Assembly (NCBI GenBank): GCA_009787085.1
Contig: WRGR01000045.1
Coordinates: forward strand, 75-64,074
Source of the DNA: Actinomycetes bacterium
GTDB taxonomy: Bacteria; Actinomycetota; Coriobacteriia; Coriobacteriales; UBA8131
Length of the DNA: 64,000 nucleotides
Direction of reading: 5' to 3'
The position numbers were made by a program, and so were the translations under genes. A model generated the notes under the pieces. That model did no database searches, had not been told where the DNA came from, and was given only the letters and a program-made list of their open reading frames with translations. This document shows, piece after piece, positions 1 through 12,387 of this stretch (position 1 is the first letter of the stretch; the number at the start of each line of letters is the position of its first letter).

Positions 1-945
1 GTAGCCACCCGGCGGCACACCCAGCGCATCCAACATGCCGACCGGACGGCCACGTTGTATCTCTGCAGCGATCAGCTTACGCTGGGCAATGACGATGATC
101 ACCGAGCCGGACAAGGCAACGGCATAGAAAACAACCATCCCCAAGTCCGAAACCCCCAGCAGCAAGAACAGCACGCTGAGTCCGTTGTTCAAGATATGCA
201 GCAGCATCGCCCACTTGATCGAGAAGCGCTGGCAGACATAGGCCAGCAGCAAGCCGACGAAAAAGGCGAAAATAGATTGGAACAAAATCATATGGTAGGC
301 ACCAAAAAGCAGCGATGAGATAACAATGGAGAAGTTCACCCCATAGCGCTGAAGCGAGCGCATAATGGCACCACGGAAGATGATCTCCTCAAAAATCGGG
401 CCGACCAAAACGATATAGGCTATGCCCCAAAACGACTTGGCCAAGGCGTTGATAGTTTCATCCAGCATACCGCCAGAGGATGAGCCGCCTTGAGGCACCA
501 TCAACGCTTGAGCCAGGAATTCCCCTAAAGCCCAAACCGCGCCGACTCCCAAGATCAAGACTATGATTTGCAGAAAATGGGGTATATGAATACGTTGGTT
601 AACATGTGTTAAATCTGATGTCACTAAGCGCTTGCCGCGCAGCGCAAACATGATGCAGGCACCGATGGCAGCCGCAGCGCAGGAGGCAAAGCCCATCCAA
701 GGACCGAGCGACTCGAGTGTCAACGACTGGACTTGAGCCGTCAATTCATCGTAGCTCATGCCGATGTTGCTGGGGTCACTGGCGATCCTCATCATCTCTG
801 AAAACAGGCCAGAGGCAAACATGCCGATAATCATGACAAAGGAGTTCACGATCAGCGTGATCACAAAGTAGCCGATCAGGCAGAGCAAGATGATCATGAC
901 CTGCTTTCGCAGATCCTTCTTGTAGAGAAACGGAATATCAGGCAT
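1..945 (-). CDS. CPBP family intramembrane metalloprotease (CAAX/Abi type); the 3' end runs off the window
   Basis: Absent from the ORF track because there is no stop inside the window. My own reverse-strand translation from the ATG at 945-943 gives 315 uninterrupted codons: MPDIPFLYKKDLRKQ...GPIFEEIIFRGAIMRSLQRYG...SLLFGAYHMILFQS...KWAMLLHILNNG. This contains the EExxxR, FxxxH and HxxxN motifs of the CPBP/Abi family, set in hydrophobic segments. Confidence 0.8.
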   Translation of the reverse strand, partial: MPDIPFLYKKDLRKQVMIILLCLIGYFVITLIVNSFVMIIGMFASGLFSEMMRIASDPSNIGMSYDELTAQVQSLTLESLGPWMGFASCAAAAIGACIMFALRGKRLVTSDLTHVNQRIHIPHFLQIIVLILGVGAVWALGEFLAQALMVPQGGSSSGGMLDETINALAKSFWGIAYIVLVGPIFEEIIFRGAIMRSLQRYGVNFSIVISSLLFGAYHMILFQSIFAFFVGLLLAYVCQRFSIKWAMLLHILNNGLSVLFLLLGVSDLGMVVFYAVALSGSVIIVIAQRKLIAAEIQRGRPVGMLDALGVPPGGY

Positions 946-1138
946 CTCGTCGACCTCTCTCTTAGCTGCTTAGCTGTCACCCTGTCCTCATGTCTCCAAG
1001 ACAGATTAAACGATATCTGGCCTATCCAAGCAATTTGTTTATCACCCTTTTAAAAGTCACGTTTGCCACAAAGGCGGCACAGTGCGCCTGGCCTTGCTGC
1101 CACCGCTGCCCACAGTACTAGGCAGCACAGAGTCTTTC

Positions 1139-1247
1139 GGGCCAAAGTAGGCTAAAAAACACCTATTTTGGCCCATTCAAACGGCTATTTTCGGGGTTTT
1201 TGGCTTCTTTCGAGCCAAAGTAGGCCAAAACATTCCATGTTTGGCCC
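1139..1247. repeat. Two related imperfect palindromes sharing the core GCCAAAGTAGGC
   Basis: GGGCCAAAGTAGG-n10-CCTATTTTGGCCC lies at 1139-1174 (12 of 13 arm positions pair). A weaker copy, GAGCCAAAGTAGG-n10-CCATGTTTGGCCC, lies at 1212-1247. The 12-nt core GCCAAAGTAGGC occurs at 1141-1152 and 1214-1225. Both are in the intergenic gap between the CPBP gene and the ATPase pseudogene. Confidence 0.5.
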
Positions 1248-1272
1248 GTTATGGCAGCGCTGATATCACGCC

Positions 1273-1880
1273 ATGTCAATCAGCAAAGGACAGAAAGTGG
1301 CGATAGTCGGCAGAAGACCTGAAAAACAAGAACTGGAGCGGTACTACCATTCAAGCTCTCCAGAGCTGTTGGTCGTTTATGGCCGTCGGCGCGTCGGCGC
1401 GGCCTTCTTGGTCAAGCAGTTCTTTGAAAACCGTTTGCAGGGCATTCACACTAAAGACGAGTATTTCTGGACAAACTACATCGAGGACGGAGCACACCGG
1501 GCGTGGTGCGGCTATGCGTTCGAATCAGTCTGCAGGGCGCACATCAAGCAGATCAAGGAGAGGCTGGCATCACAGGGGTGTCTACCTCCACAATGTCTTG
1601 GCGCAGCAAGAAGTCACAGCCAGCCGCACAGATCGGCCTGCTGATCAGCCGTCGAGACAGCGTGATCAACCTTTGTGAGATCAAATATCTCAAGCATCCC
1701 TACGAGTTGGACGCAACAGCAGCCGCCGATCTAGAGCGGAAGAAGTCCGTCTTCCTCACCGAGACAGGAGCAAAGGATGCGATTCACGCTACGATGATCA
1801 CCGCCTACGGCTTGGCACAAAGCGGTTATCGCAGCATCGTCCAGTCAGAAGTAACCATGAACGACCTGTTCCATCAATGA
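1273..1880 (+). pseudogene. Decayed AAA-type ATP-binding protein (archaeal-ATPase/DUF234-like) with an internal deletion and a +1 frameshift
   Basis: The N-terminal piece ...ELLVVYGRRRVGAAFLVKQFFENRL has the P-loop lysine/threonine replaced (GAA where GKT is expected). The C-terminal piece continues in another frame (ORF 1503..1880): GITGVSTSTMSWRSKKSQPAAQIGLLISRRDSVINLCEIKY...SIVQSEVTMNDLF. The frame switches near 1568 (ctg-g-gc-atc). The total of about 200 codons compares with the roughly 450 I recall for intact family members. Confidence 0.7.
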
Positions 1881-1893
1881 TCTAGCAGCCTAC

Positions 1894-3438
1894 TCATTGT
1901 TCGGTCAAGTTGAGTTGTTTTAGCAGCCAGGTCATCCAGGTTTCTTGGCCGGACACTATGTCGGCCTGCACCGTCATGCCGGCACTGGCCTCCTGGGCGG
2001 GGCTGCCGGCCTTCTGCAGGGTGCTGCTGTCCAGCGCGGCCTCGACCCGGTAGAACTGGCCTGCGCCCTCGACGGGCATCGAGGTGGCGGAGATGTAGTC
2101 CACCGTGCACTGCAGGCGGCCATACTGCTGGTAGGGATAAGCGCTGACCGAAAGCAGCACCTTCTGGCCGTGGCTGACCTGGGCGATGTCCTTGTCCGCG
2201 ACCATCAGCACCACCCGCGGCCGGCCAGCAGCCGGCACGATGTGCAGTATCGCCGTACCCGGCTGGATGACCTCCCCTGCCGTCAGCTGGTCGTCGAACA
2301 TCACGGTGCCGTCGCTGCTGGCGGTAATGGTGCCGTTGGCGATCTGCTGCTGAAGGTCGTTGACCTGTAGCTGGCAGGCATCACGCGCCTGCGTCGCGGT
2401 GTCCAGAAGCGTCTGTGCCTCCGAGATCTTCTGCTCCCGCAGCTGAGTGAGGGTCAACGTGACCAGCTGGCCCTTGTCCGCCGCTCCGGCCTGGGAGCTG
2501 GCCTGGGCGATCTGGTCTTGGTAGGCGGTGATCTGGGAGCTGGCCTGCTCGACGACGGTCTGGGCCTGCGTGTTGTAGCTGGCCAGCACCGAGTTCAGTT
2601 GCAGCTGGGCGCTGTCTTCGGCCTGCTTGGCGGCATCGACATCGGCTTGCTCCAGCACACCGGCGGCCAGCCCCCGCTCGGCCTCGGCATACTTGGCCGC
2701 CGCTGCGTCTAGAGCCTGCTGGTAGACGCTGCGCTCGCTGGTGAACGACCGGTAGATGGACATGGCGTAGGCATCCGGTGAGGAGAAGCCCTCGGAGTCG
2801 GCCATCGCCCCCTGTAGGCGCTGGTACTCGCCGATCTTCCAGTTCAGGTCGCCGATGCGCTGCTGGTAAAGCCCGGCCAGGGCTGTCGAGCCCTGCTGGG
2901 TCTGCGCAGACTGGGTGCTCTCCACCCGGTTGGTCTCGGTGATGATGTTGCGCTCGGCCAGGTAGTCTTGGTACATGGAGTAAAGCGGATCCTCCACGGC
3001 CAGCAGGTTGGTGCTGTCCAGATAGCTCTGCTTCAGGGTGTTCAGGCTGGCCAGCCTCTGGTTGGCAGCGTCCAGCTGGCCTTGGTACACACCGAGCTGG
3101 GACTGGGCATAGCCGATGTCCAAGACCACCAGCGCGTCGCCGGCATGCACCTCGGCGCCGTTGGCCACCTTGACCTCGGCTACCTTGCCGCCCGCCACCG
3201 CCGTCACGGCCTCGGCCTGGGTACCCGGCTCGATGATGCCTTGGGCGCTGACGGCCACGTCATGCCGCATCAGCAGCAAAAACAGCAGCGCCAGCAAGAC
3301 TGCCGCCAGCAGTATGGTCAAAAACCACCTAGCCACCGGCGGCACACTGGCCTGCATGACCTCCTTGCTGTCGGTGATCTGCTCAAAGTAGGCTTCCTGC
3401 CTACCCCGCTTACCCAATCTGTTCCTCCTGTTAGCCAT
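1894..3438 (-). CDS. HlyD-family secretion/accessory protein (LcnD/ComB-like bacteriocin export adaptor)
   Basis: 514-aa ORF. It has an N-terminal basic segment and one TM (WFLTILLAAVLLALLFLLL), a biotinyl-lipoyl-like motif (GGKVAEVKVANGAEVHAGDALVVLD), a long Q/A-rich coiled coil and a C-terminal beta-barrel region. Its start ATG (3438-3436) shares one nucleotide with the upstream TGA (TGATG). Confidence 0.85.
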   Translation of the reverse strand: MANRRNRLGKRGRQEAYFEQITDSKEVMQASVPPVARWFLTILLAAVLLALLFLLLMRHDVAVSAQGIIEPGTQAEAVTAVAGGKVAEVKVANGAEVHAGDALVVLDIGYAQSQLGVYQGQLDAANQRLASLNTLKQSYLDSTNLLAVEDPLYSMYQDYLAERNIITETNRVESTQSAQTQQGSTALAGLYQQRIGDLNWKIGEYQRLQGAMADSEGFSSPDAYAMSIYRSFTSERSVYQQALDAAAAKYAEAERGLAAGVLEQADVDAAKQAEDSAQLQLNSVLASYNTQAQTVVEQASSQITAYQDQIAQASSQAGAADKGQLVTLTLTQLREQKISEAQTLLDTATQARDACQLQVNDLQQQIANGTITASSDGTVMFDDQLTAGEVIQPGTAILHIVPAAGRPRVVLMVADKDIAQVSHGQKVLLSVSAYPYQQYGRLQCTVDYISATSMPVEGAGQFYRVEAALDSSTLQKAGSPAQEASAGMTVQADIVSGQETWMTWLLKQLNLTEQ

Positions 3439-5606
3439 CAGGCCTGCCTATCGGGCATCTGTTTGTTCCAAAGGCCGCTGTAGGCCCCGCCGGCGGCCAG
3501 CAGCTCGGCATGGCTGCCGCTCTCCACGATGCGCCCGTCATGCATCACACAGATCAGGTCGCAGTGCATGATGGAGGAAAGGCGGTGGGCGATCAGGAAA
3601 ACGGTAGTGTCGGCGGCCATGTTCTGGATGGTGCGCTGAATCACTTGCTCGGAGCTGGAATCCATGTGGCTGGTGGCCTCGTCCAGTATCAATATCTCCG
3701 GGTCGCGGATCAAAACGCGGGCGATGGCCAGCTTCTGGCGCTGGCCGCCGGAGAGGTTGGCGGCGTTCTCCTCCAAGTAGCTCTCGTAGCGCAGCGGCAT
3801 CTTGTTGATGAAGCTGGCCGCGTCGACCAGCTCGCAGACCGCCGCCATCTTCTCCATGTCCGGCTCCGCCAAGCCCATCATCAGGTTCTCACGGATCGAT
3901 CCGGAGAAGAAGTGCGGCTCTTGGGGCACATAGCCGATCCGGGTGCGCAGGGCGTCCAAATCGATGTCTTTGATGTTGTAGTTGCCAATGCGGATGTCGC
4001 CGGCCTCCCAGTCGTAGAGGCGCAGCAGCAGACTGACTAAGGTGGTCTTGCCCGAGCCGCTCTCCCCCACCAAGGCCACCCGTGCCCCCTTGGGGGCCTT
4101 CAGGCTGACACCCTCCAAGACCAAGCGCCTAGTGCCGTAACGGAAGGAGATGCCCTCGATGGCAATATCGCCCTTCAGGGTCGATGGGAAGAACTTGCTG
4201 CCGCCCTCGCGGGCATCTTCGCCCTCCAAGGCCAGTATCTCGCCCATCCGGTTGGCGGCCACCACTGCGGTCTGCAGCTGGGGTTGGAGGTTAATGATGT
4301 TGCGCACCGGGTCGATGAAATAGACCAGCAGGGCGTTGAAGGTGATCAGCCCGCCCAGCGTCATGCGGCCGTCGAGGATCTCCAACACGCCGACCCAGAG
4401 TATCACCGTGCCGCCGACTGCCGCTATCACCGTGGTGATAGTGCCTTGGGCGTTACCGATGAAGCCACCGGTGAAGACGCTCTTCAACAACCTGACGAAG
4501 AGGGTGTCGGTCCGGGCGCGAGCCAGCGCCTCGTTGCGGGAGACCTTGATCTCCTCGATGCCGTTGATCGACTCCACTAGGTAGGAGGTCAACTGGGCGT
4601 TGTTCTCCATCATCTTCTCGTTGATGTTGCGGATCGGTCGGTTGAAGGCGAACACCACGACCGCGTAGAGGACGACGACAACTAAGGCGATGACGAAGAG
4701 CATGGCGTTTTGGGTGTAGAGGATGATGCCGCCGATCACGGCCATCAAGGCATCGATCATCACCGTCAGGGCGGTGCCGGAGATAGCATCGCGGATCTTC
4801 GAGGCGTCCATGAAGCGGGCGACGATCTCGCCGATCTTGCGGGTGCCGAAAAACGACATCGGCAGCCCCATGACATGCTTGTAGTAGCCGAGCAGCAAGG
4901 GGATGTCCAGTTTCTGGGAGAGGTAGAGCGTCAGTTGGCCGCGGAAGAACTCCGTGACTGCCTTGACCACGTAGAGCGCGATGACACCGATAGAGATAGT
5001 GGTCAGGGTGGTGACCAAGTGTCCGGGGACGACCGAGTCCATGATCACTCGAAAGTAGAACGCCCCGAGGATGCCAAACAGGGTGATCAGCACGGAGGCC
5101 AAGAATATCAGGGCCAGCAGGCGCTTCTGCGGCAGCAGCAGCTTAAAGAAGCTGAGCAGGTAGTTCTCCACCTTCTTGCCGGCCACGAATTCCGGGGAGG
5201 GGGCGATAAGGATGATGATGCCCAGCCAAGTTTTGAGGAACTCCTCGCTGGTGTAAGGCACAACGCCCTTGGCCGGATCAGCAACCACCAGTTTGTCTTT
5301 GGTTTTTTTGTGGATCACCACATAGTGCAGCTCTCCGGAAGGGCTGGCCACCAAAGCGATGGCCGGCAAGGTGAAGTCTGCTGCGAATGCCGTGTGGTCG
5401 CCCTTGACCGGTCGGGCATAGAAGCCGAGCTGCTCTGCCGCCTTGACCATGCCGTAGGCGTTGGTACCCATTTTGTCGGTGCCAGCAGCTTCACGGATCT
5501 TCGATATTGAGATTTTCAGCTTGTAGTGCTTAGCGATAGTTGCCAGACAGGCCGCGCCACAGTCAGTGCTGTCATATTGTTTAACACAAGCGTACCGCTT
5601 AAGCAT
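3438..5606 (-). CDS. Peptidase C39 domain-containing ABC transporter (bacteriocin/peptide cleavage-export, PCAT type)
   Basis: 722 aa. The N-terminal C39 domain has the catalytic Cys context YDSTDCGAACLATIAKHY and His in GELHYVVIHK. It has a six-TM core, Walker A GESGSGKTTL, signature LSGGQRQKLAIARVL, Walker B ILILDEATS and H-loop LIAHRLS. Confidence 0.92.
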   Translation of the reverse strand: MLKRYACVKQYDSTDCGAACLATIAKHYKLKISISKIREAAGTDKMGTNAYGMVKAAEQLGFYARPVKGDHTAFAADFTLPAIALVASPSGELHYVVIHKKTKDKLVVADPAKGVVPYTSEEFLKTWLGIIILIAPSPEFVAGKKVENYLLSFFKLLLPQKRLLALIFLASVLITLFGILGAFYFRVIMDSVVPGHLVTTLTTISIGVIALYVVKAVTEFFRGQLTLYLSQKLDIPLLLGYYKHVMGLPMSFFGTRKIGEIVARFMDASKIRDAISGTALTVMIDALMAVIGGIILYTQNAMLFVIALVVVVLYAVVVFAFNRPIRNINEKMMENNAQLTSYLVESINGIEEIKVSRNEALARARTDTLFVRLLKSVFTGGFIGNAQGTITTVIAAVGGTVILWVGVLEILDGRMTLGGLITFNALLVYFIDPVRNIINLQPQLQTAVVAANRMGEILALEGEDAREGGSKFFPSTLKGDIAIEGISFRYGTRRLVLEGVSLKAPKGARVALVGESGSGKTTLVSLLLRLYDWEAGDIRIGNYNIKDIDLDALRTRIGYVPQEPHFFSGSIRENLMMGLAEPDMEKMAAVCELVDAASFINKMPLRYESYLEENAANLSGGQRQKLAIARVLIRDPEILILDEATSHMDSSSEQVIQRTIQNMAADTTVFLIAHRLSSIMHCDLICVMHDGRIVESGSHAELLAAGGAYSGLWNKQMPDRQA

Positions 5607-5725
5607 CTGCTGACCCGTCTATACGTGAACTGCCGCCACACCTTGCTCGGCTGCGGAATCTCCAGTAGCCGATGCGGATGAGTAGCGGGAATTTGACTAG
5701 AAGACAACCCCCCTACGCAACCGAA

Positions 5726-5760
5726 ACCCAGGTTGTTATTATAGCAATAACAACCTGGGT
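5726..5760 (-). terminator. Perfect 15-bp stem / 5-nt loop hairpin between the peptide gene and the exporter genes (attenuator or terminator candidate)
   Basis: ACCCAGGTTGTTATT-atagc-AATAACAACCTGGGT, checked base by base. It lies 62 nt downstream of the peptide stop (5822) and 120 nt upstream of the ABC start (5606). The trailing sequence on the minus strand is TTCGGTTG, a weak U-tract. Confidence 0.55.
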
Positions 5761-5821
5761 CCGATTACCGTTCAATCAAGAAATAGCCCTTGATTCTTTG
5801 AGAGCGATAGAAACCTAACGC

Positions 5822-6067
5822 TTACCAACGAATCAAAAGATTGGTGAAGGGGGCGATAACCCTGACAAAGCCATCCTTCACGGAGACGTTGACCTTGGTG
5901 TACGGAGCATTCACCTTTACATCAACATCATCTTTGCTGACAACGGAGACGAAGACAGACACGAGGGACGACAAAAAGCCGCTACCATCATAATCCATCA
6001 TCTCTTCCTTGCCGAGCTCGGCAAACCCTGCACCACATACGATTGAACGATCCATTGCCTCTTTCAT
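5822..6067 (-). CDS. 81-aa putative exported peptide precursor with a double-glycine-type (Gly-Ser) leader; product class unknown
   Basis: Strong SD (GGAGGAaagtgaaATG). It is on the same strand as, and immediately upstream of, the C39-ABC/HlyD pair. The N-terminal 29 aa, MKEAMDRSIVCGAGFAELGKEEMMDYDGS, fit the leader consensus positions (F-15, L-12, E-8, M-7, Y-4, G-2, S-1). The predicted 52-aa core is GFLSSLVSVFVSVVSKDDVDVKVNAPYTKVNVSVKDGFVRVIAPFTNLLIRW. Confidence 0.6.
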   Translation of the reverse strand: MKEAMDRSIVCGAGFAELGKEEMMDYDGSGFLSSLVSVFVSVVSKDDVDVKVNAPYTKVNVSVKDGFVRVIAPFTNLLIRW

Positions 6068-6120
6068 TTCACTTTCCTCCGTTCTTACAGTTTCCTGCTG
6101 GACAAACTAACTGAGAACAG

Positions 6121-6129
6121 ATTGTACCA
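6121..6129 (-). promoter_or_regulatory. Candidate extended -10 element (TGGTACAAT on the minus strand) for the peptide gene
   Basis: The reverse complement of 6121-6129 reads TGGTACAAT, about 53 nt upstream of the peptide ATG. I found no convincing -35 at 17-nt spacing (ACGCCA), which would fit an activator-dependent promoter. Confidence 0.3.
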
Positions 6130-6312
6130 CACTGTTCGGACCTTGGCGTGAGAATATGGATTTTTTATGTTAATTGCTATCGACAATCCATCCACACTTT
6201 GGCTGCATAACTCCGTAGTAGATCATATAATACCCTTTCTTTTGCGTCATATTGCTATATTTAGGATACATTTGTAATATCATTTATATAAATTGGTTAT
6301 GCAAATATAGCA

Positions 6313-6414
6313 GCAAATGATGGGCTGGTTCTAGGGAACATCTACCGCAACCAGTGCGCGGGCATGAATGAGCCGGGCAAATGATGGGCTGGTTCTAGGG
6401 AACATCTACCGCAA
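6313..6414. repeat. 38-bp perfect direct repeat (period 64 bp) duplicating the 3' end of the MFS gene
   Basis: GCAAATGATGGGCTGGTTCTAGGGAACATCTACCGCAA occurs at 6313-6350 and again at 6377-6414. The second copy contains the last two codons and the stop (6406-6408) of the MFS gene plus 29 nt of its 3' flank. Confidence 0.9.
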
Positions 6415-7719
6415 AGCATCTGTCTGGGAAGCAGCAGCAACACCTGCCTCACGGGTAACACGAACCGCAACTAAACAGACAGAGGCACAAGACATGCCAA
6501 TACCACCAACTATCAACAGCCAGTCAATGGGAACCAAGTCGGCAAGCGGGCCAAAAAACGCCATGCCAAGGGGCATAGTAAGTGACCCGATCATCATGAA
6601 CACCGAGAGCACCCGTCCCATGAAATCCGGGTCGGTCTTCTCTTGAAGAATAGCCGACATAGGCGAGTTGAAAAATGGCATGATGATGCCGATGACCCCC
6701 ATACAGGCCAGATAGATCCAAAAGCTGTTGAGAATCCCTAGCCCCACAGCACCCAAACCGAAGGCCAGCGAAGCGGATGCCATGGTGAAAGTACGGTTCT
6801 TAAAGCCGCCCCATACCCCAACAATGACACCGCCAAGCATCATCCCCACTGAGAACACAACCTCCACAGCGCCTAGGCGCCAAGCATCTGCGCCGAACTC
6901 TCGAACAACCTGCAGAGGCGGGAGAAAAGCAGCTGGCACAGCAAAAACGTTAAAGACGATGCCTATGACCAAAAAGGCCAGAATGAATTTCCGATGTCGC
7001 ATATAACGCAGACCAGCTGTGAATTCAGAGAAAAAGCCCGGTTTGGGTGTTGATGCTGCCAACTCTACATCAGCGTTGGAATCGGTCGCCGAGAGGGCAG
7101 CACTTCGCCGCCAGCCCCTATGGGTGCGCACACAGAAAAACACGATGGAAATGCCGATAACAGCAGTCGCCACGTCAACATACATCAGCGCCTGAACTGG
7201 AAAAAACGATAACAATCCCGCCGCTGCCATCGGTGAGGCGAATGTTGAGAGCGACTGGATAGCAGAACTGAAGCCGTTTACCCGAACCAGCTGGTCAGCA
7301 GGAACAATGTCAGGAAGGATGGCAGATACTGCAGGCAGTTGGATACCCTGTCCAAAGCCGCGCACCAACATACAAACGAAAAGCAGTCCCAACCACTGAA
7401 TACCAGCCGAGAATAGAAGCGCCATAACCAAGGTCACCAAGGCAATGACAGCATCAACGAAGTTGATGAGGTATTTACGGTTATAGCGGTCCGCCCATAC
7501 GCCGCCAAGGGGTGACGCAACGGCCATGGGCACCATCAAGGCGATAGTGAAGAGCATCAGCACGATGCCTGACTGCGTTTGCAGTGTCACATACCAGCTG
7601 ATGGCATAGCCGGTGATCATCGTGCCGAACAATGTGACTGCTTGGCCCACAAGGAACAAAGCGACGGTTCTTTTCCAAGCAGGAGAAAGCGCCCCTAGCT
7701 CTTGTTTTTCACTAGCCAC
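6406..7719 (-). CDS. MFS transporter (MFS_3 / EntS-Mef-like efflux family)
   Basis: 437 aa with about 12 predicted TM segments. The motif GGVWADRYNRKYL after TM2 is typical of this MFS subfamily. Confidence 0.8.
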   Translation of the reverse strand: MASEKQELGALSPAWKRTVALFLVGQAVTLFGTMITGYAISWYVTLQTQSGIVLMLFTIALMVPMAVASPLGGVWADRYNRKYLINFVDAVIALVTLVMALLFSAGIQWLGLLFVCMLVRGFGQGIQLPAVSAILPDIVPADQLVRVNGFSSAIQSLSTFASPMAAAGLLSFFPVQALMYVDVATAVIGISIVFFCVRTHRGWRRSAALSATDSNADVELAASTPKPGFFSEFTAGLRYMRHRKFILAFLVIGIVFNVFAVPAAFLPPLQVVREFGADAWRLGAVEVVFSVGMMLGGVIVGVWGGFKNRTFTMASASLAFGLGAVGLGILNSFWIYLACMGVIGIIMPFFNSPMSAILQEKTDPDFMGRVLSVFMMIGSLTMPLGMAFFGPLADLVPIDWLLIVGGIGMSCASVCLVAVRVTREAGVAAASQTDALR

Positions 7720-7798
7720 TGCCAGCCTTCCCTATGCCACCCCGCATGTCTGTTGCCACAGTCACACCCCCTTGCCTGCTTTACTGTATGTGAAAGGC

Positions 7799-8146
7799 TT
7801 ATGCTGTTGCTAGCGGCTCAATGATCACCGCTGTGCCATAGGCCACTACCCCGCCGGCTGTCTGCGCCATACTCTCGGTGTCAAAGCGCATCATTACCAC
7901 TGCGTTGGCACCCAGTTGTGACGCATTGGTACGCATCCGCATCATGGCCTCAGCGCGGGTCTCTTCGATAAGCTTTGTAAACGCAACCAGCTCGCCACCG
8001 ACCATCGACTTAAAACCTGCTCCCATGGTCGAGAACATATTGCGTGAACGGCTTGTGCAGCCAAAGACCCCACCGAGGGTGCGCACGGTACGGTAGCCGG
8101 CAACGTTCTCAGTGGTGACAACGAGTATCTGCTGAGGGTCAATCAT
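7799..8146 (-). CDS. YbjQ/UPF0145 family protein (heavy-metal-binding-like domain)
   Basis: 115 aa. ILVVTTENVAGYRTVRTLGGVFGCTSRSRNMF...GGELVAFTKLIEETRAEAMMRMRTNASQLGANAVVMMRFDT matches the conserved YbjQ pattern. Confidence 0.8.
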   Translation of the reverse strand: MIDPQQILVVTTENVAGYRTVRTLGGVFGCTSRSRNMFSTMGAGFKSMVGGELVAFTKLIEETRAEAMMRMRTNASQLGANAVVMMRFDTESMAQTAGGVVAYGTAVIIEPLATA

Positions 8147-8323
8147 GTTTTACTCCTTCGCCCGGTTTTCATTGCACACCCCGTGCAATGTTTAGCGTCA
8201 ATTTTAGCATTTTCCAGCCCTGACTAGACTTAAGCCATCAACAACAGCCACCCACAAATACGCCCAGATTACCGCATGATAGAAGACAGCCATAATGGCA
8301 CCACACGAGCTTGGGGAAGTGAA

Positions 8324-8569
8324 ATGCCAGATATCGGAGCAATCAAAAATGAGATACTACTGCTGCTGGATTGCGAGGAGGCTGCACACGGCAACCAACA
8401 AAGATTCCTCTTCACGCTGCTAGGCGATAGAGGCGACGACGATCTGGTCAGGGCCGAGTCCCTCGGTGGGCCTTTCTCTGCCGTAGACCTTGGGATCGTG
8501 AAATACCACTTCGAAATCGGCGTTGGCCGGGAGGGCCGACAGGGGCAGCAAACTTTCTGCTGGGCGTAA
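8324..8569 (+). CDS. Hypothetical small protein (81 aa)
   Basis: The internal ATG of ORF 8276..8569 is preceded by GGGGAAG. The sequence MPDIGAIKNEILLLLDCEEAAHGNQQRFLFTLLGDRGDDDLVRAESLGG... contains no domain I recognise. Confidence 0.35.
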   Translation: MPDIGAIKNEILLLLDCEEAAHGNQQRFLFTLLGDRGDDDLVRAESLGGPFSAVDLGIVKYHFEIGVGREGRQGQQTFCWA

Positions 8570-8624
8570 TGTTCACGGGTGCACTGAGTGAGCTTGGTCT
8601 GCTGGTAAAATAGTGGAGAGCAGC

Positions 8625-8726
8625 ATGGCTGTCGAGCGAAACTTCGAGATCCCGCTGCGAAACGGAGTAAGGCTTTGCGCAGGTGTTGCCCCGTCCGACG
8701 ATTCGACCGACTGGGGCTGTTGCTAA
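8625..8726 (+). CDS. Hypothetical 33-aa peptide ending in DWGCC
   Basis: Below the ORF-track size cutoff, so read by hand: GGAGAGcagcATG, then MAVERNFEIPLRNGVRLCAGVAPSDDSTDWGCC and TAA. Its stop lies 13 nt before the next ORF's ATG, and the SD AAAGGAG for that next ORF overlaps this peptide's stop codon. Confidence 0.3.
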   Translation: MAVERNFEIPLRNGVRLCAGVAPSDDSTDWGCC

Positions 8727-8739
8727 AGGAGCTGGTAGA

Positions 8740-8967
8740 ATGCAAAAGTACGAGGTTATTCGGGAGATGTTCAACCCTTGCGGTGGCGAGGCCCCAGGGA
8801 AGATCGACCTGCTGGAAATTGAAACTGAAGATATTGCCCAATGGCTGGCGTCTAGGTTCAGCAAGGAACCAGCATCCATCGAGCACTTAGAGAACAGAAA
8901 AGGCGCGATCATCTACAACGTATACATTGGCGTAATGCGGGAACGTTACAGCTTTTCAGCCATTTAG
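8740..8967 (+). CDS. Hypothetical small protein (75 aa)
   Basis: The internal ATG of ORF 8683..8967 has a good SD (AAAGGAGctggtagaATG). The sequence is MQKYEVIREMFNPCGGEAPGKIDLLEIETEDIAQWLASRF.... It looks like a conserved small protein, but I cannot name a family. Confidence 0.5.
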   Translation: MQKYEVIREMFNPCGGEAPGKIDLLEIETEDIAQWLASRFSKEPASIEHLENRKGAIIYNVYIGVMRERYSFSAI

Positions 8968-9190
8968 AGAAGTGCTGCCCTGTGCCCATGCTCGTCAAAA
9001 GCTTGGCCAAAATGTTTCTCTATGTTAACCACGTAATCCCGGAAAGTTAGGTATGCGGCATAAAGGGCTCGATCATCAGGGGCGCGCCCAATGCCTCGAA
9101 CAGCACACGCTGTCGCCCCGGCAGGTTGCTTAAAAGGTTGCGGCGGCTGGTCTGAAGCACGATCACGCTTGAGGAATTAGACCTTCTGGC

Positions 9191-12387
<3,197 letters not shown>

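Follow-up and report, generated by a model that had tools for sequence, protein, structure and literature searches.

The closest described counterparts of the locus considered here are the PCAT1/CtA system of Clostridium thermocellum and the ComA/ComB system of Streptococcus. Their exporters are ATP-binding cassette (ABC) transporters that contain a peptidase (PCATs), with a C39 peptidase domain, six transmembrane segments and a nucleotide-binding domain (NBD), in that order, and with conserved catalytic and ATPase motifs; immediately upstream is the gene for a cargo that carries a double-glycine-type leader, and Gram-positive systems include an LcnD/ComB-like accessory protein. The class II bacteriocin loci (lactococcin A with LcnC/LcnD; plantaricin and Blp with Abi/CPBP genes) likewise combine a leader peptide, an exporter, an accessory protein and a nearby CPBP/Abi gene. 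We find this arrangement in a 64,000-nucleotide stretch (the window) of contig WRGR01000045.1, from an uncultured gut-type actinobacterium whose relatives are labelled Coriobacteriales. On its minus strand an 81-amino-acid open reading frame (ORF) precedes a PCAT gene and a probable LcnD/ComB-type accessory gene, and a CPBP/Abi-type gene lies further downstream. The module arrangement and the export machinery are textbook, and novel cores are common in such loci; what is unusual is that the beta-repeat cargo has its relatives among Sec-type proteins in another phylum. We read the locus, with a probability of roughly 0.55, as an unmodified class II-type bacteriocin module, in which a new cargo would be cut after Gly28-Ser29, exported by the PCAT with its LcnD-type partner, and met in the producer by CPBP immunity. 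The main elements, all on the minus strand and numbered from the first letter of the window, are as follows.

6075..6080, minus strand: Shine-Dalgarno sequence GGAGGA, 7 nt 5' of the cargo ATG (direct sequence reading)
5822..6067, minus strand: very probable cargo precursor gene, 81 amino acids, stop codon counted in (ORF call in two independent assemblies)
5981..6067, minus strand: double-glycine-type leader, residues 1-29, MKEAMDRSIVCGAGFAELGKEEMMDYDGS (motif positions and leader alignment)
5825..5980, minus strand: predicted mature core, 52 amino acids, GFLSS...LLIRW (family profile and AlphaFold)
3438..5606, minus strand: peptidase-containing ABC transporter (PCAT/AMS), 722 amino acids (domain, family-model and motif matches)
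5193-5594, minus strand: C39 domain of the exporter, residues 5-138 (Peptidase_C39)
1894..3438, minus strand: probable LcnD/ComB-type (HlyD-family) accessory protein, 514 amino acids (domain matches; TGATG overlap)

The exporter contains the domains Peptidase_C39 (PF03412, E 3.8e-36), ABC_membrane and ABC_tran, and scores 680 bits against TIGR01193, the model for "peptide cleavage/export ABC transporter" (curated cut-off 523.85). Its best solved relative is PCAT1 (4ry2, E 5e-217) and the second-best is ComA. Over its first 148 residues the exporter aligns gap-free with PCAT1, and Q10, C16, H94 and D110 fall on the catalytic Gln, Cys, His and Asp, and the ATPase motifs are intact: GESGSGKT (Walker A) at 514, LSGGQ at 618, ILILDEATS (Walker B) at 638 and IAHRL (H-loop) at 672. 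HlyB-type exporters carry inactive C39-like domains, and it is the catalytic Cys and His that separate PCATs from them. By its sequence the protein is a peptidase-containing ABC transporter, which would both cleave and export the cargo. The accessory protein matches HlyD_3 above the cut-off, together with PF25887 (HB_LcnD) and PF26002 (Beta-barrel_AprE), and stays below the curated cut-offs of TIGR01000 (128 vs 259 bits) and TIGR01843 (153 vs 209 bits). Its gene directly follows that of the exporter, the ATG sharing nucleotide 3438 with the exporter TGA (TGATG), an overlap through which the two appear to be translationally coupled. Two independent samples carry all three genes intact and in identical form; L002, the only other contig that has the cargo gene, matches over 6342 nt at 100% identity. 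A first-pass annotation, made from the letters of the window, had described an 81-residue ORF with a Shine-Dalgarno sequence, a perfect 15-bp hairpin behind it, a C39-ABC exporter with intact Cys and His contexts and NBD motifs, and a HlyD-type adaptor overlapping the exporter stop by one nucleotide; each is present where it had been placed.

The leader connects the small ORF to this exporter. With the cut after Gly28-Ser29, it presents F-15, L-12, E-8, M-7, Y-4, G-2 and S-1. The recognition pattern of ComA and LahT is L-12 x3 E-8 L-7 with a hydrophobic residue at -4; positions -4, -7 and -12 pack in the protease groove, and Gly-Ser counts among the accepted cut sites (PMC6363468). We scored leaders for Gly at -2, Gly, Ala or Ser at -1, hydrophobic residues at -4, -7 and -12 (and -15) and Glu at -8, and the window leader has a fitting residue at every one of these positions. 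It is also acidic (pI 4.2). A cut after Gly30 (GSG) was rejected, since it would place Ser at -2 and Asp at -4; so was the idea that the hydrophobic residues 30-44 form a Sec-signal h-region, the preceding 29 residues having a net charge of -4. Against PF10439, PF16934 and PF03047 the leader gives no match above the cut-off (the leader part of PF16934 reaches E 0.17, 12 vs 27.6 bits), and the leaders of related loci score somewhat higher against PF16934, still below the cut-off. A six-frame motif scan of the 64 kb found no other credible double-glycine leader ORF.

The same kind of leader is found in small ORFs beside homologues of the exporter at several other loci (percentages are exporter identities; the slash marks the cut).

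L007, 68%: small ORF nearby, MKEYELVCGGAFEDLTTEEMMEFDGS / IGPITL...
L005 and L006, 74%: ..MACGAAFE-LKQAEMMDFDGG / VTPTVV..., frameshifted in both assemblies
L008, a Coriobacteriales metagenome-assembled genome, 73%: ..FKSLDCDEMYEFDAG / AISLNI..., directly upstream
L009, 65%: ..FSEMDETELTEVNGG / FFGFGGGG...
L012, Ruminococcus, 60%: several peptides starting MESVMKNGFAELSANEMNEVDGG

The window leader aligns with those at L007, L005, L008, L009 and L012 (for instance, VCGGAFEDLTTEEMMEFDGS at L007 with VCGAGFAELGKEEMMDYDGS in the window), and the cores behind these leaders all differ. In a scan of a genome collection with the exporter, the L008 genome was the one close relative recovered. On this sequence evidence we consider it very probable that the 81-residue ORF encodes the cargo of the adjacent C39-ABC/LcnD-type exporter, as the first-pass annotation had proposed, and the mature start it had predicted, GFLSSLVS, agrees with both the consensus and the related leaders. 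Its suggested check, conservation of the ORF next to homologous exporters, comes out divided: the leader is conserved there and the core is not. Conservation of the leader alone is usual in bacteriocin loci and leaves the cargo assignment unrefuted.

As a side observation, the frameshift inside the leader is identical in two separate assemblies (L005 5307-5520 and L006 95-310, both minus strand), and the gene adjoins phage-type integrase and helix-turn-helix genes. The frameshift and these neighbours suggest that the L005/L006 precursor may be a decaying, mobile copy.

The core and its repeat family

The predicted mature core is a peptide of 52 amino acids and 5.73 kDa, with a pI of 9.4, a grand average of hydropathy of 0.62 and no Cys. 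Its first 13-15 residues are hydrophobic and Ser-rich; two clear V-x-V-x-A-P-[YF]-T repeats follow, up to the C-terminal Trp, and the internal repeat units are VKVNAPYTKVNV and VRVIAPFTNLLI. With an alignment of the family described below, AlphaFold models residues 42-80 as a five-strand beta-meander (strands 42-46, 49-54, 57-62, 67-72 and 75-80) with a block predicted local distance difference test score of 82-93; the score is <50 for the leader and for residues 30-38. Along each strand, hydrophobic and polar residues follow one another in strict alternation. A Foldseek search of the model against the PDB is uninformative (best E 0.3, only generic beta-galactosidase beta-sheet pieces), and neither Pfam nor NCBIfam, Bacteriocin_IIc included, has a family matching the core. 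The earlier description of a Cys-free, beta-strand-like core with an internal repeat, resembling no known bacteriocin, lantibiotic or pheromone family, thus holds.

A word-index search with the 81-residue peptide returns the peptide itself and nothing else. Exhaustive phmmer searches do find relatives, small proteins that match residues ~43-81 at their own C-termini (51-55% identity, E 9e-7 to 8e-4); over the last 38-39 residues, identity to the core is 53-57%. Apart from a 2-residue deletion in one member, the last 38 residues align practically without gaps; 14 columns are invariant, and every sequence ends on the terminal Trp. A profile search brings up 26 proteins among 5.8 billion, free of Pfam domains and in one case labelled Pseudomonadota, and a DNA-level metagenome scan adds 26 further loci with a GC content of 62-70%; the resulting set (P0125-P0156, L028-L053) comes mostly from high-GC soil metagenomes. 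To avoid circularity we built a profile from 22 family members with the window peptide left out. The window core scores 53.3 bits against it (E 2e-9 for 1.8 billion sequences) and aligns without gaps to the C-terminal end of the profile, as against 13.2 bits for the best of 20,000 composition-preserving shuffles. From its sequence, then, the core is one of a rare set of small, repeat-containing proteins that form an unnamed family, and a literature search on the C-terminal motif strings returned no paper.

The protein-level homology of leader and core shows that the 81-residue ORF is coding. It is hard to credit that it is an unexpressed or chance ORF: the sequence does occur at a single locus, but the Shine-Dalgarno sequence is strong and canonically placed, the leader is homologous to leaders beside related exporters, and no shuffled sequence approaches the profile score of the core.

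Members of the family have three V-x-V-x-A-P-[YH]-T-x-V repeats and a C-terminus of the form ...VRVRAPYVNLDIRW; with the window peptide included, there are two to three V-x-V-x-A-P-[YFH]-T-x-V repeats, and the C-terminal pattern is ...RAP[FY][TV]N[LV]x[IV][RK]W. The window repeats have the same spacing and the same C-terminal end. At the position of the first family repeat the full alignment places the stretch LVSVFVSVVS, and a 14-nt DNA repeat in the cargo gene, spaced 63 nt (encoding VFVSV and VNVSV), suggests that this stretch is a degenerate, hydrophobic first repeat unit, which sets the window peptide apart from the rest of the family. The short forms of the family have 64-83 amino acids, many with a signal-peptide-like N-terminus, and the longer ones 107-170 amino acids, including a hydrophobic anchor at the N-terminus as well as a Pro/Ala linker. 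At the 26 metagenome loci there are no homologues of C39, ABC or HlyD proteins, and the annotated neighbours of three members on long contigs are unrelated genes and include no exporter or CPBP/immunity-type gene. The window peptide, from an actinobacterium, is the sole member that stands behind a double-glycine leader in a PCAT operon. One family locus, L035, adjoins CcrM-like (615 bits) and AmpG genes, neighbours that suggest an alphaproteobacterial host; this locus and the one Pseudomonadota label are the basis for the taxonomy of the family. The first-pass annotation had also suggested a search for homologues of the core and for their co-occurrence with C39-ABC genes: the homologues exist, as this repeat family, and at the loci examined they do not co-occur with such genes. 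In the same way, its "undescribed secreted peptide system" is right in that the core matches no described family, but with the core conserved beside no homologous exporter we would speak of a single locus rather than a system.

Two of the three members with examined context (L013-L015) adjoin a DUF924 gene, and the third follows an extracytoplasmic function (ECF)-type sigma factor and a 284-amino-acid gene (L013 4126-4701, L015 1847-2368, L014 3361-4823). These neighbours may be clues to the native role of the family.

The way its homologues occur raises a different reading of the cargo, as a non-toxic envelope-associated or matrix beta-sheet protein that keeps the presumed ancestral job of the family and has exchanged the Sec route for a PCAT. 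Once exported, it would associate with itself, or adhere to the cell surface, through its amphipathic strands. Such a role accords with a family whose small genes stand alone and encode N-termini of the signal-peptide or anchor type, with the lack of exporter and immunity-type genes just described, and with the strict alternation of residues in a confidently predicted meander. PCATs are known to export non-bacteriocin peptides and proteins as well (PMC6959990, PMC7018657). Against it stand the CPBP/Abi gene downstream, the bacteriocin-like size (5.7 kDa) and charge of the core with its acidic leader, and the bacteriocin or lanthipeptide cargo of the exporter's relatives; nor is there an obvious reason why a housekeeping surface protein should occur at a single locus. 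We regard this reading as unlikely, while giving it real weight.

Candidate immunity gene, modification and possible functions of the peptide

The next same-strand gene after the accessory gene is cut by the start of the window.

1..945, minus strand: 5' part of a CPBP/Rce1-like (Abi) intramembrane protease gene (full ORF of 523 amino acids, L001 15123-16694)

Its product matches PF02517 above the cut-off (E 1.9e-17) as well as CPBP models of NCBIfam, and the translation contains EEIIFR (EExxxR), FGAYH (FxxxH) and HILNN (HxxxN). The CPBP/Abi family has been tied to bacteriocin self-immunity (Kjos et al. 2010, as cited in PMC8692603), and the gene is our candidate for the immunity gene of the locus. 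Because of this gene, which the first-pass annotation had overlooked, we favour an antimicrobial over a signalling peptide, two possibilities that the annotation had put side by side. The candidate differs from the immunity genes of class II loci in being non-contiguous with the operon and in its C-terminal tail of ~230 residues, made of Pro-rich tandem repeats (PPGGYPPPPAAAWPGVPPTSY...) and a final hydrophobic segment; such a Pro-rich tail is odd for Abi-type immunity proteins.

As an unmodified class II-type bacteriocin module, the locus would work in the following way. The 81-residue precursor would be made from its own promoter and strong Shine-Dalgarno sequence, and the hairpin after the cargo stop would let only part of the transcripts into the exporter genes. 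The amphipathic leader helix would dock F-15, L-12, M-7 and Y-4 in the C39 groove, Cys16 and His94 of the exporter would cut after Gly28-Ser29, and the 52-residue cationic core would leave through the ABC dimer, aided by the LcnD-type accessory protein. Outside, the core would fold into, or assemble via, the amphipathic beta-meander of V-x-V-x-A-P-[YF]-T repeats, with its hydrophobic N-terminal stretch, and would act on the envelope of competitors, the producer being protected by the CPBP/Abi membrane protease encoded downstream. This reading is consistent with a core that is small, cationic and hydrophobic, like class II bacteriocins, with the acidic leader, and with the absence of LanM and flavin mononucleotide (FMN) reductase genes from the 64 kb.

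Several points weigh against it. The gap of ~950 bp between the accessory gene and the CPBP gene holds a frameshifted ATPase gene on the opposite strand, and none of the related exporters examined was seen to have a CPBP gene nearby. For the most part, class II bacteriocins known so far form helices rather than beta-meanders, and the window core has no match to a Pfam bacteriocin family. Among 5.8 billion proteins the core occurs at one locus only, and since its homologues stand alone, without exporter or CPBP/immunity-type neighbours, the ancestral role of the fold, judged from these sequences, was perhaps non-toxic and envelope-related. Finally, a modification enzyme may lie elsewhere in the 402-kb contig, beyond the 64 kb that were searched.

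The last point bears on a further possibility, namely that the locus is a remnant or satellite of a class II lanthipeptide-type cluster, whose Ser and Thr residues would be dehydrated (perhaps reduced) by a LanM-type enzyme that has been lost or is encoded elsewhere. The closest exporter homologues, at L003 (75% identical; 5359-9170) and L007 (68%; 1504-5938), have a LanM and an FMN-reductase-like gene beside them, which ties this exporter lineage to lanthipeptide export. The L007 precursor shares the leader type (..CGGAFE.L...EMM.FDGS) and has a Cys-free, Ser/Thr-rich core like that of the window, where 8 residues are Ser or Thr, five of them among the first 15; the leaders give their sub-threshold matches to the leader part of PF16934, and one neighbouring gene has decayed. 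Unlike class II lanthipeptide clusters, though, the window has no LanM, LanC or reductase in its 64 kb: a tblastn search with the two LanMs and the two FMN reductases found no homologue (best E 0.17). The core lacks the Cys with which lanthipeptide rings are formed and is homologous to a non-lanthipeptide family, and the exporters at L008, L009 and L012 serve apparently unmodified peptides with leaders of the same kind. A lanthipeptide origin is therefore improbable in our view. For L007 itself, the LanC part of the LanM is only faint and the precursor core, IGPITLSVILNTIYMITEMFFFPRKAY, is free of Cys; its product may be a D-amino-acid peptide, made by dehydration and reduction, and no true lanthipeptide.

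Signalling has its own specific form, a secreted pheromone like ComC or BlpC. ComA-type exporters process pheromones, ComA being the second-best solved relative of the window exporter, and at L003 and L012 there are Agr-like genes or histidine kinases close by. The locus itself differs from these systems. In the ~10 kb to each side it has neither a histidine kinase nor a response regulator, so that an adjacent two-component system is absent, and the core is unrelated to ComC, CtA or other described cargo. Known double-glycine pheromones are far shorter than the 52-residue mature part found here, which is predicted to be structured. We consider a pheromone very improbable.

The boldest reading starts from the C-terminal strand, invariant across the family, whose sequence (L-x-I-R-W-COOH, alternating hydrophobics, terminal aromatic) seems to resemble the beta-signal of outer-membrane proteins. 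A proteobacterial-type envelope beta-meander might have been captured by a Gram-positive gut actinobacterium, its Sec signal swapped for a double-glycine leader, and secreted as a weapon or decoy aimed at Gram-negatives, where the peptide, instead of forming pores, might act on the machinery of outer-membrane assembly or envelope stress. This we put forward as a long shot.

Expression signals and surrounding sequence

Two further features on the minus strand concern expression of the module.

6222..6250, minus strand: sigma-70-like promoter candidate (ATGACG, 17 nt, TATGAT; consensus match only)
5726..5760, minus strand: hairpin in the interval between the cargo gene and the exporter gene (inverted-repeat and RNA-fold analysis)

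The promoter candidate lies in the 340-bp, AT-rich spacer 5' of the cargo gene (GC 43-46%); the scan found 2 sigma-70-like sites against 3.7 expected, which makes the match weak evidence. The hairpin has arms of 15 nt (5726-5740 and 5746-5760), 100% complementary, and a loop of 5 nt, and the 122-nt intergenic RNA that contains it folds with -46.9 kcal/mol (z = -5.8 vs 200 shuffles). A search of window positions 1-12000 against Rfam gave no RNA family match. Because the U-tract 3' of the stem is short (UUUCGGUU) and a terminator scan does not list the hairpin, it looks more like an attenuator/stabiliser or a processing hairpin than a strong terminator. Structural-gene hairpins occur in bacteriocin and lantibiotic operons, and by analogy this one probably serves as a stabiliser or a partial terminator and thereby fixes the peptide-to-exporter ratio.

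Several other observations concern the same spacer and its surroundings. Just 5' of the cargo gene is an AT-rich ORF of 37 amino acids (6170-6283, minus strand; MILQMYPKYSNMTQKKGYYMIYYGVMQPKCGWIVDSN), called as a gene in one assembly only and without an obvious Shine-Dalgarno sequence or known relatives. A perfect 38-bp direct repeat (6313-6350 and 6377-6414, period 64 nt) overlaps, with its second copy, the stop and last codons of a major facilitator superfamily (MFS; Mef-like) gene at 6406-7719 (minus strand), and the independent assembly L002 ends exactly at this repeat. Third-position GC is 0.84-0.86 in the exporter and accessory genes; the cargo gene has 0.585, the MFS gene 0.57 and ligA 0.72. 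The contrast hints at a mosaic origin, the exporter pair being compositionally unlike both its neighbours and its own cargo.

The genes within ~10 kb of the locus are housekeeping genes. At 1273-1880, on the plus strand, two overlapping ORFs together resemble a frameshifted AAA-type ATPase gene (ATPase_2/AAA_16, sub-threshold). Between ybjQ and ligA, about 1 kb (8150-9190) contains short overlapping ORFs only; one assembly calls an 81-amino-acid fragment there with a weak nitroreductase-like match, Rfam has no family for it, and the interval is probably decayed coding sequence.

Meaning of a beta-repeat cargo

Should the bacteriocin reading be right, the cargo would be a secreted peptide of the class II type that is composed of short beta-hairpin repeats instead of helices. 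In the comparison with its family, one small module appears behind two export signals, of the Sec type in soil proteobacteria and a double-glycine leader with a PCAT here, a natural case of cargo recruitment by leader swapping. At 5.7 kDa the peptide can be synthesised and tested, and it gives access to a family of small repeat proteins that is so far uncharacterised. If it is active, it would be a new scaffold from the poorly sampled, uncultured Coriobacteriia-like actinobacteria, and if it should prove to target Gram-negatives, it would represent a structurally new, all-beta class of PCAT-exported effector.

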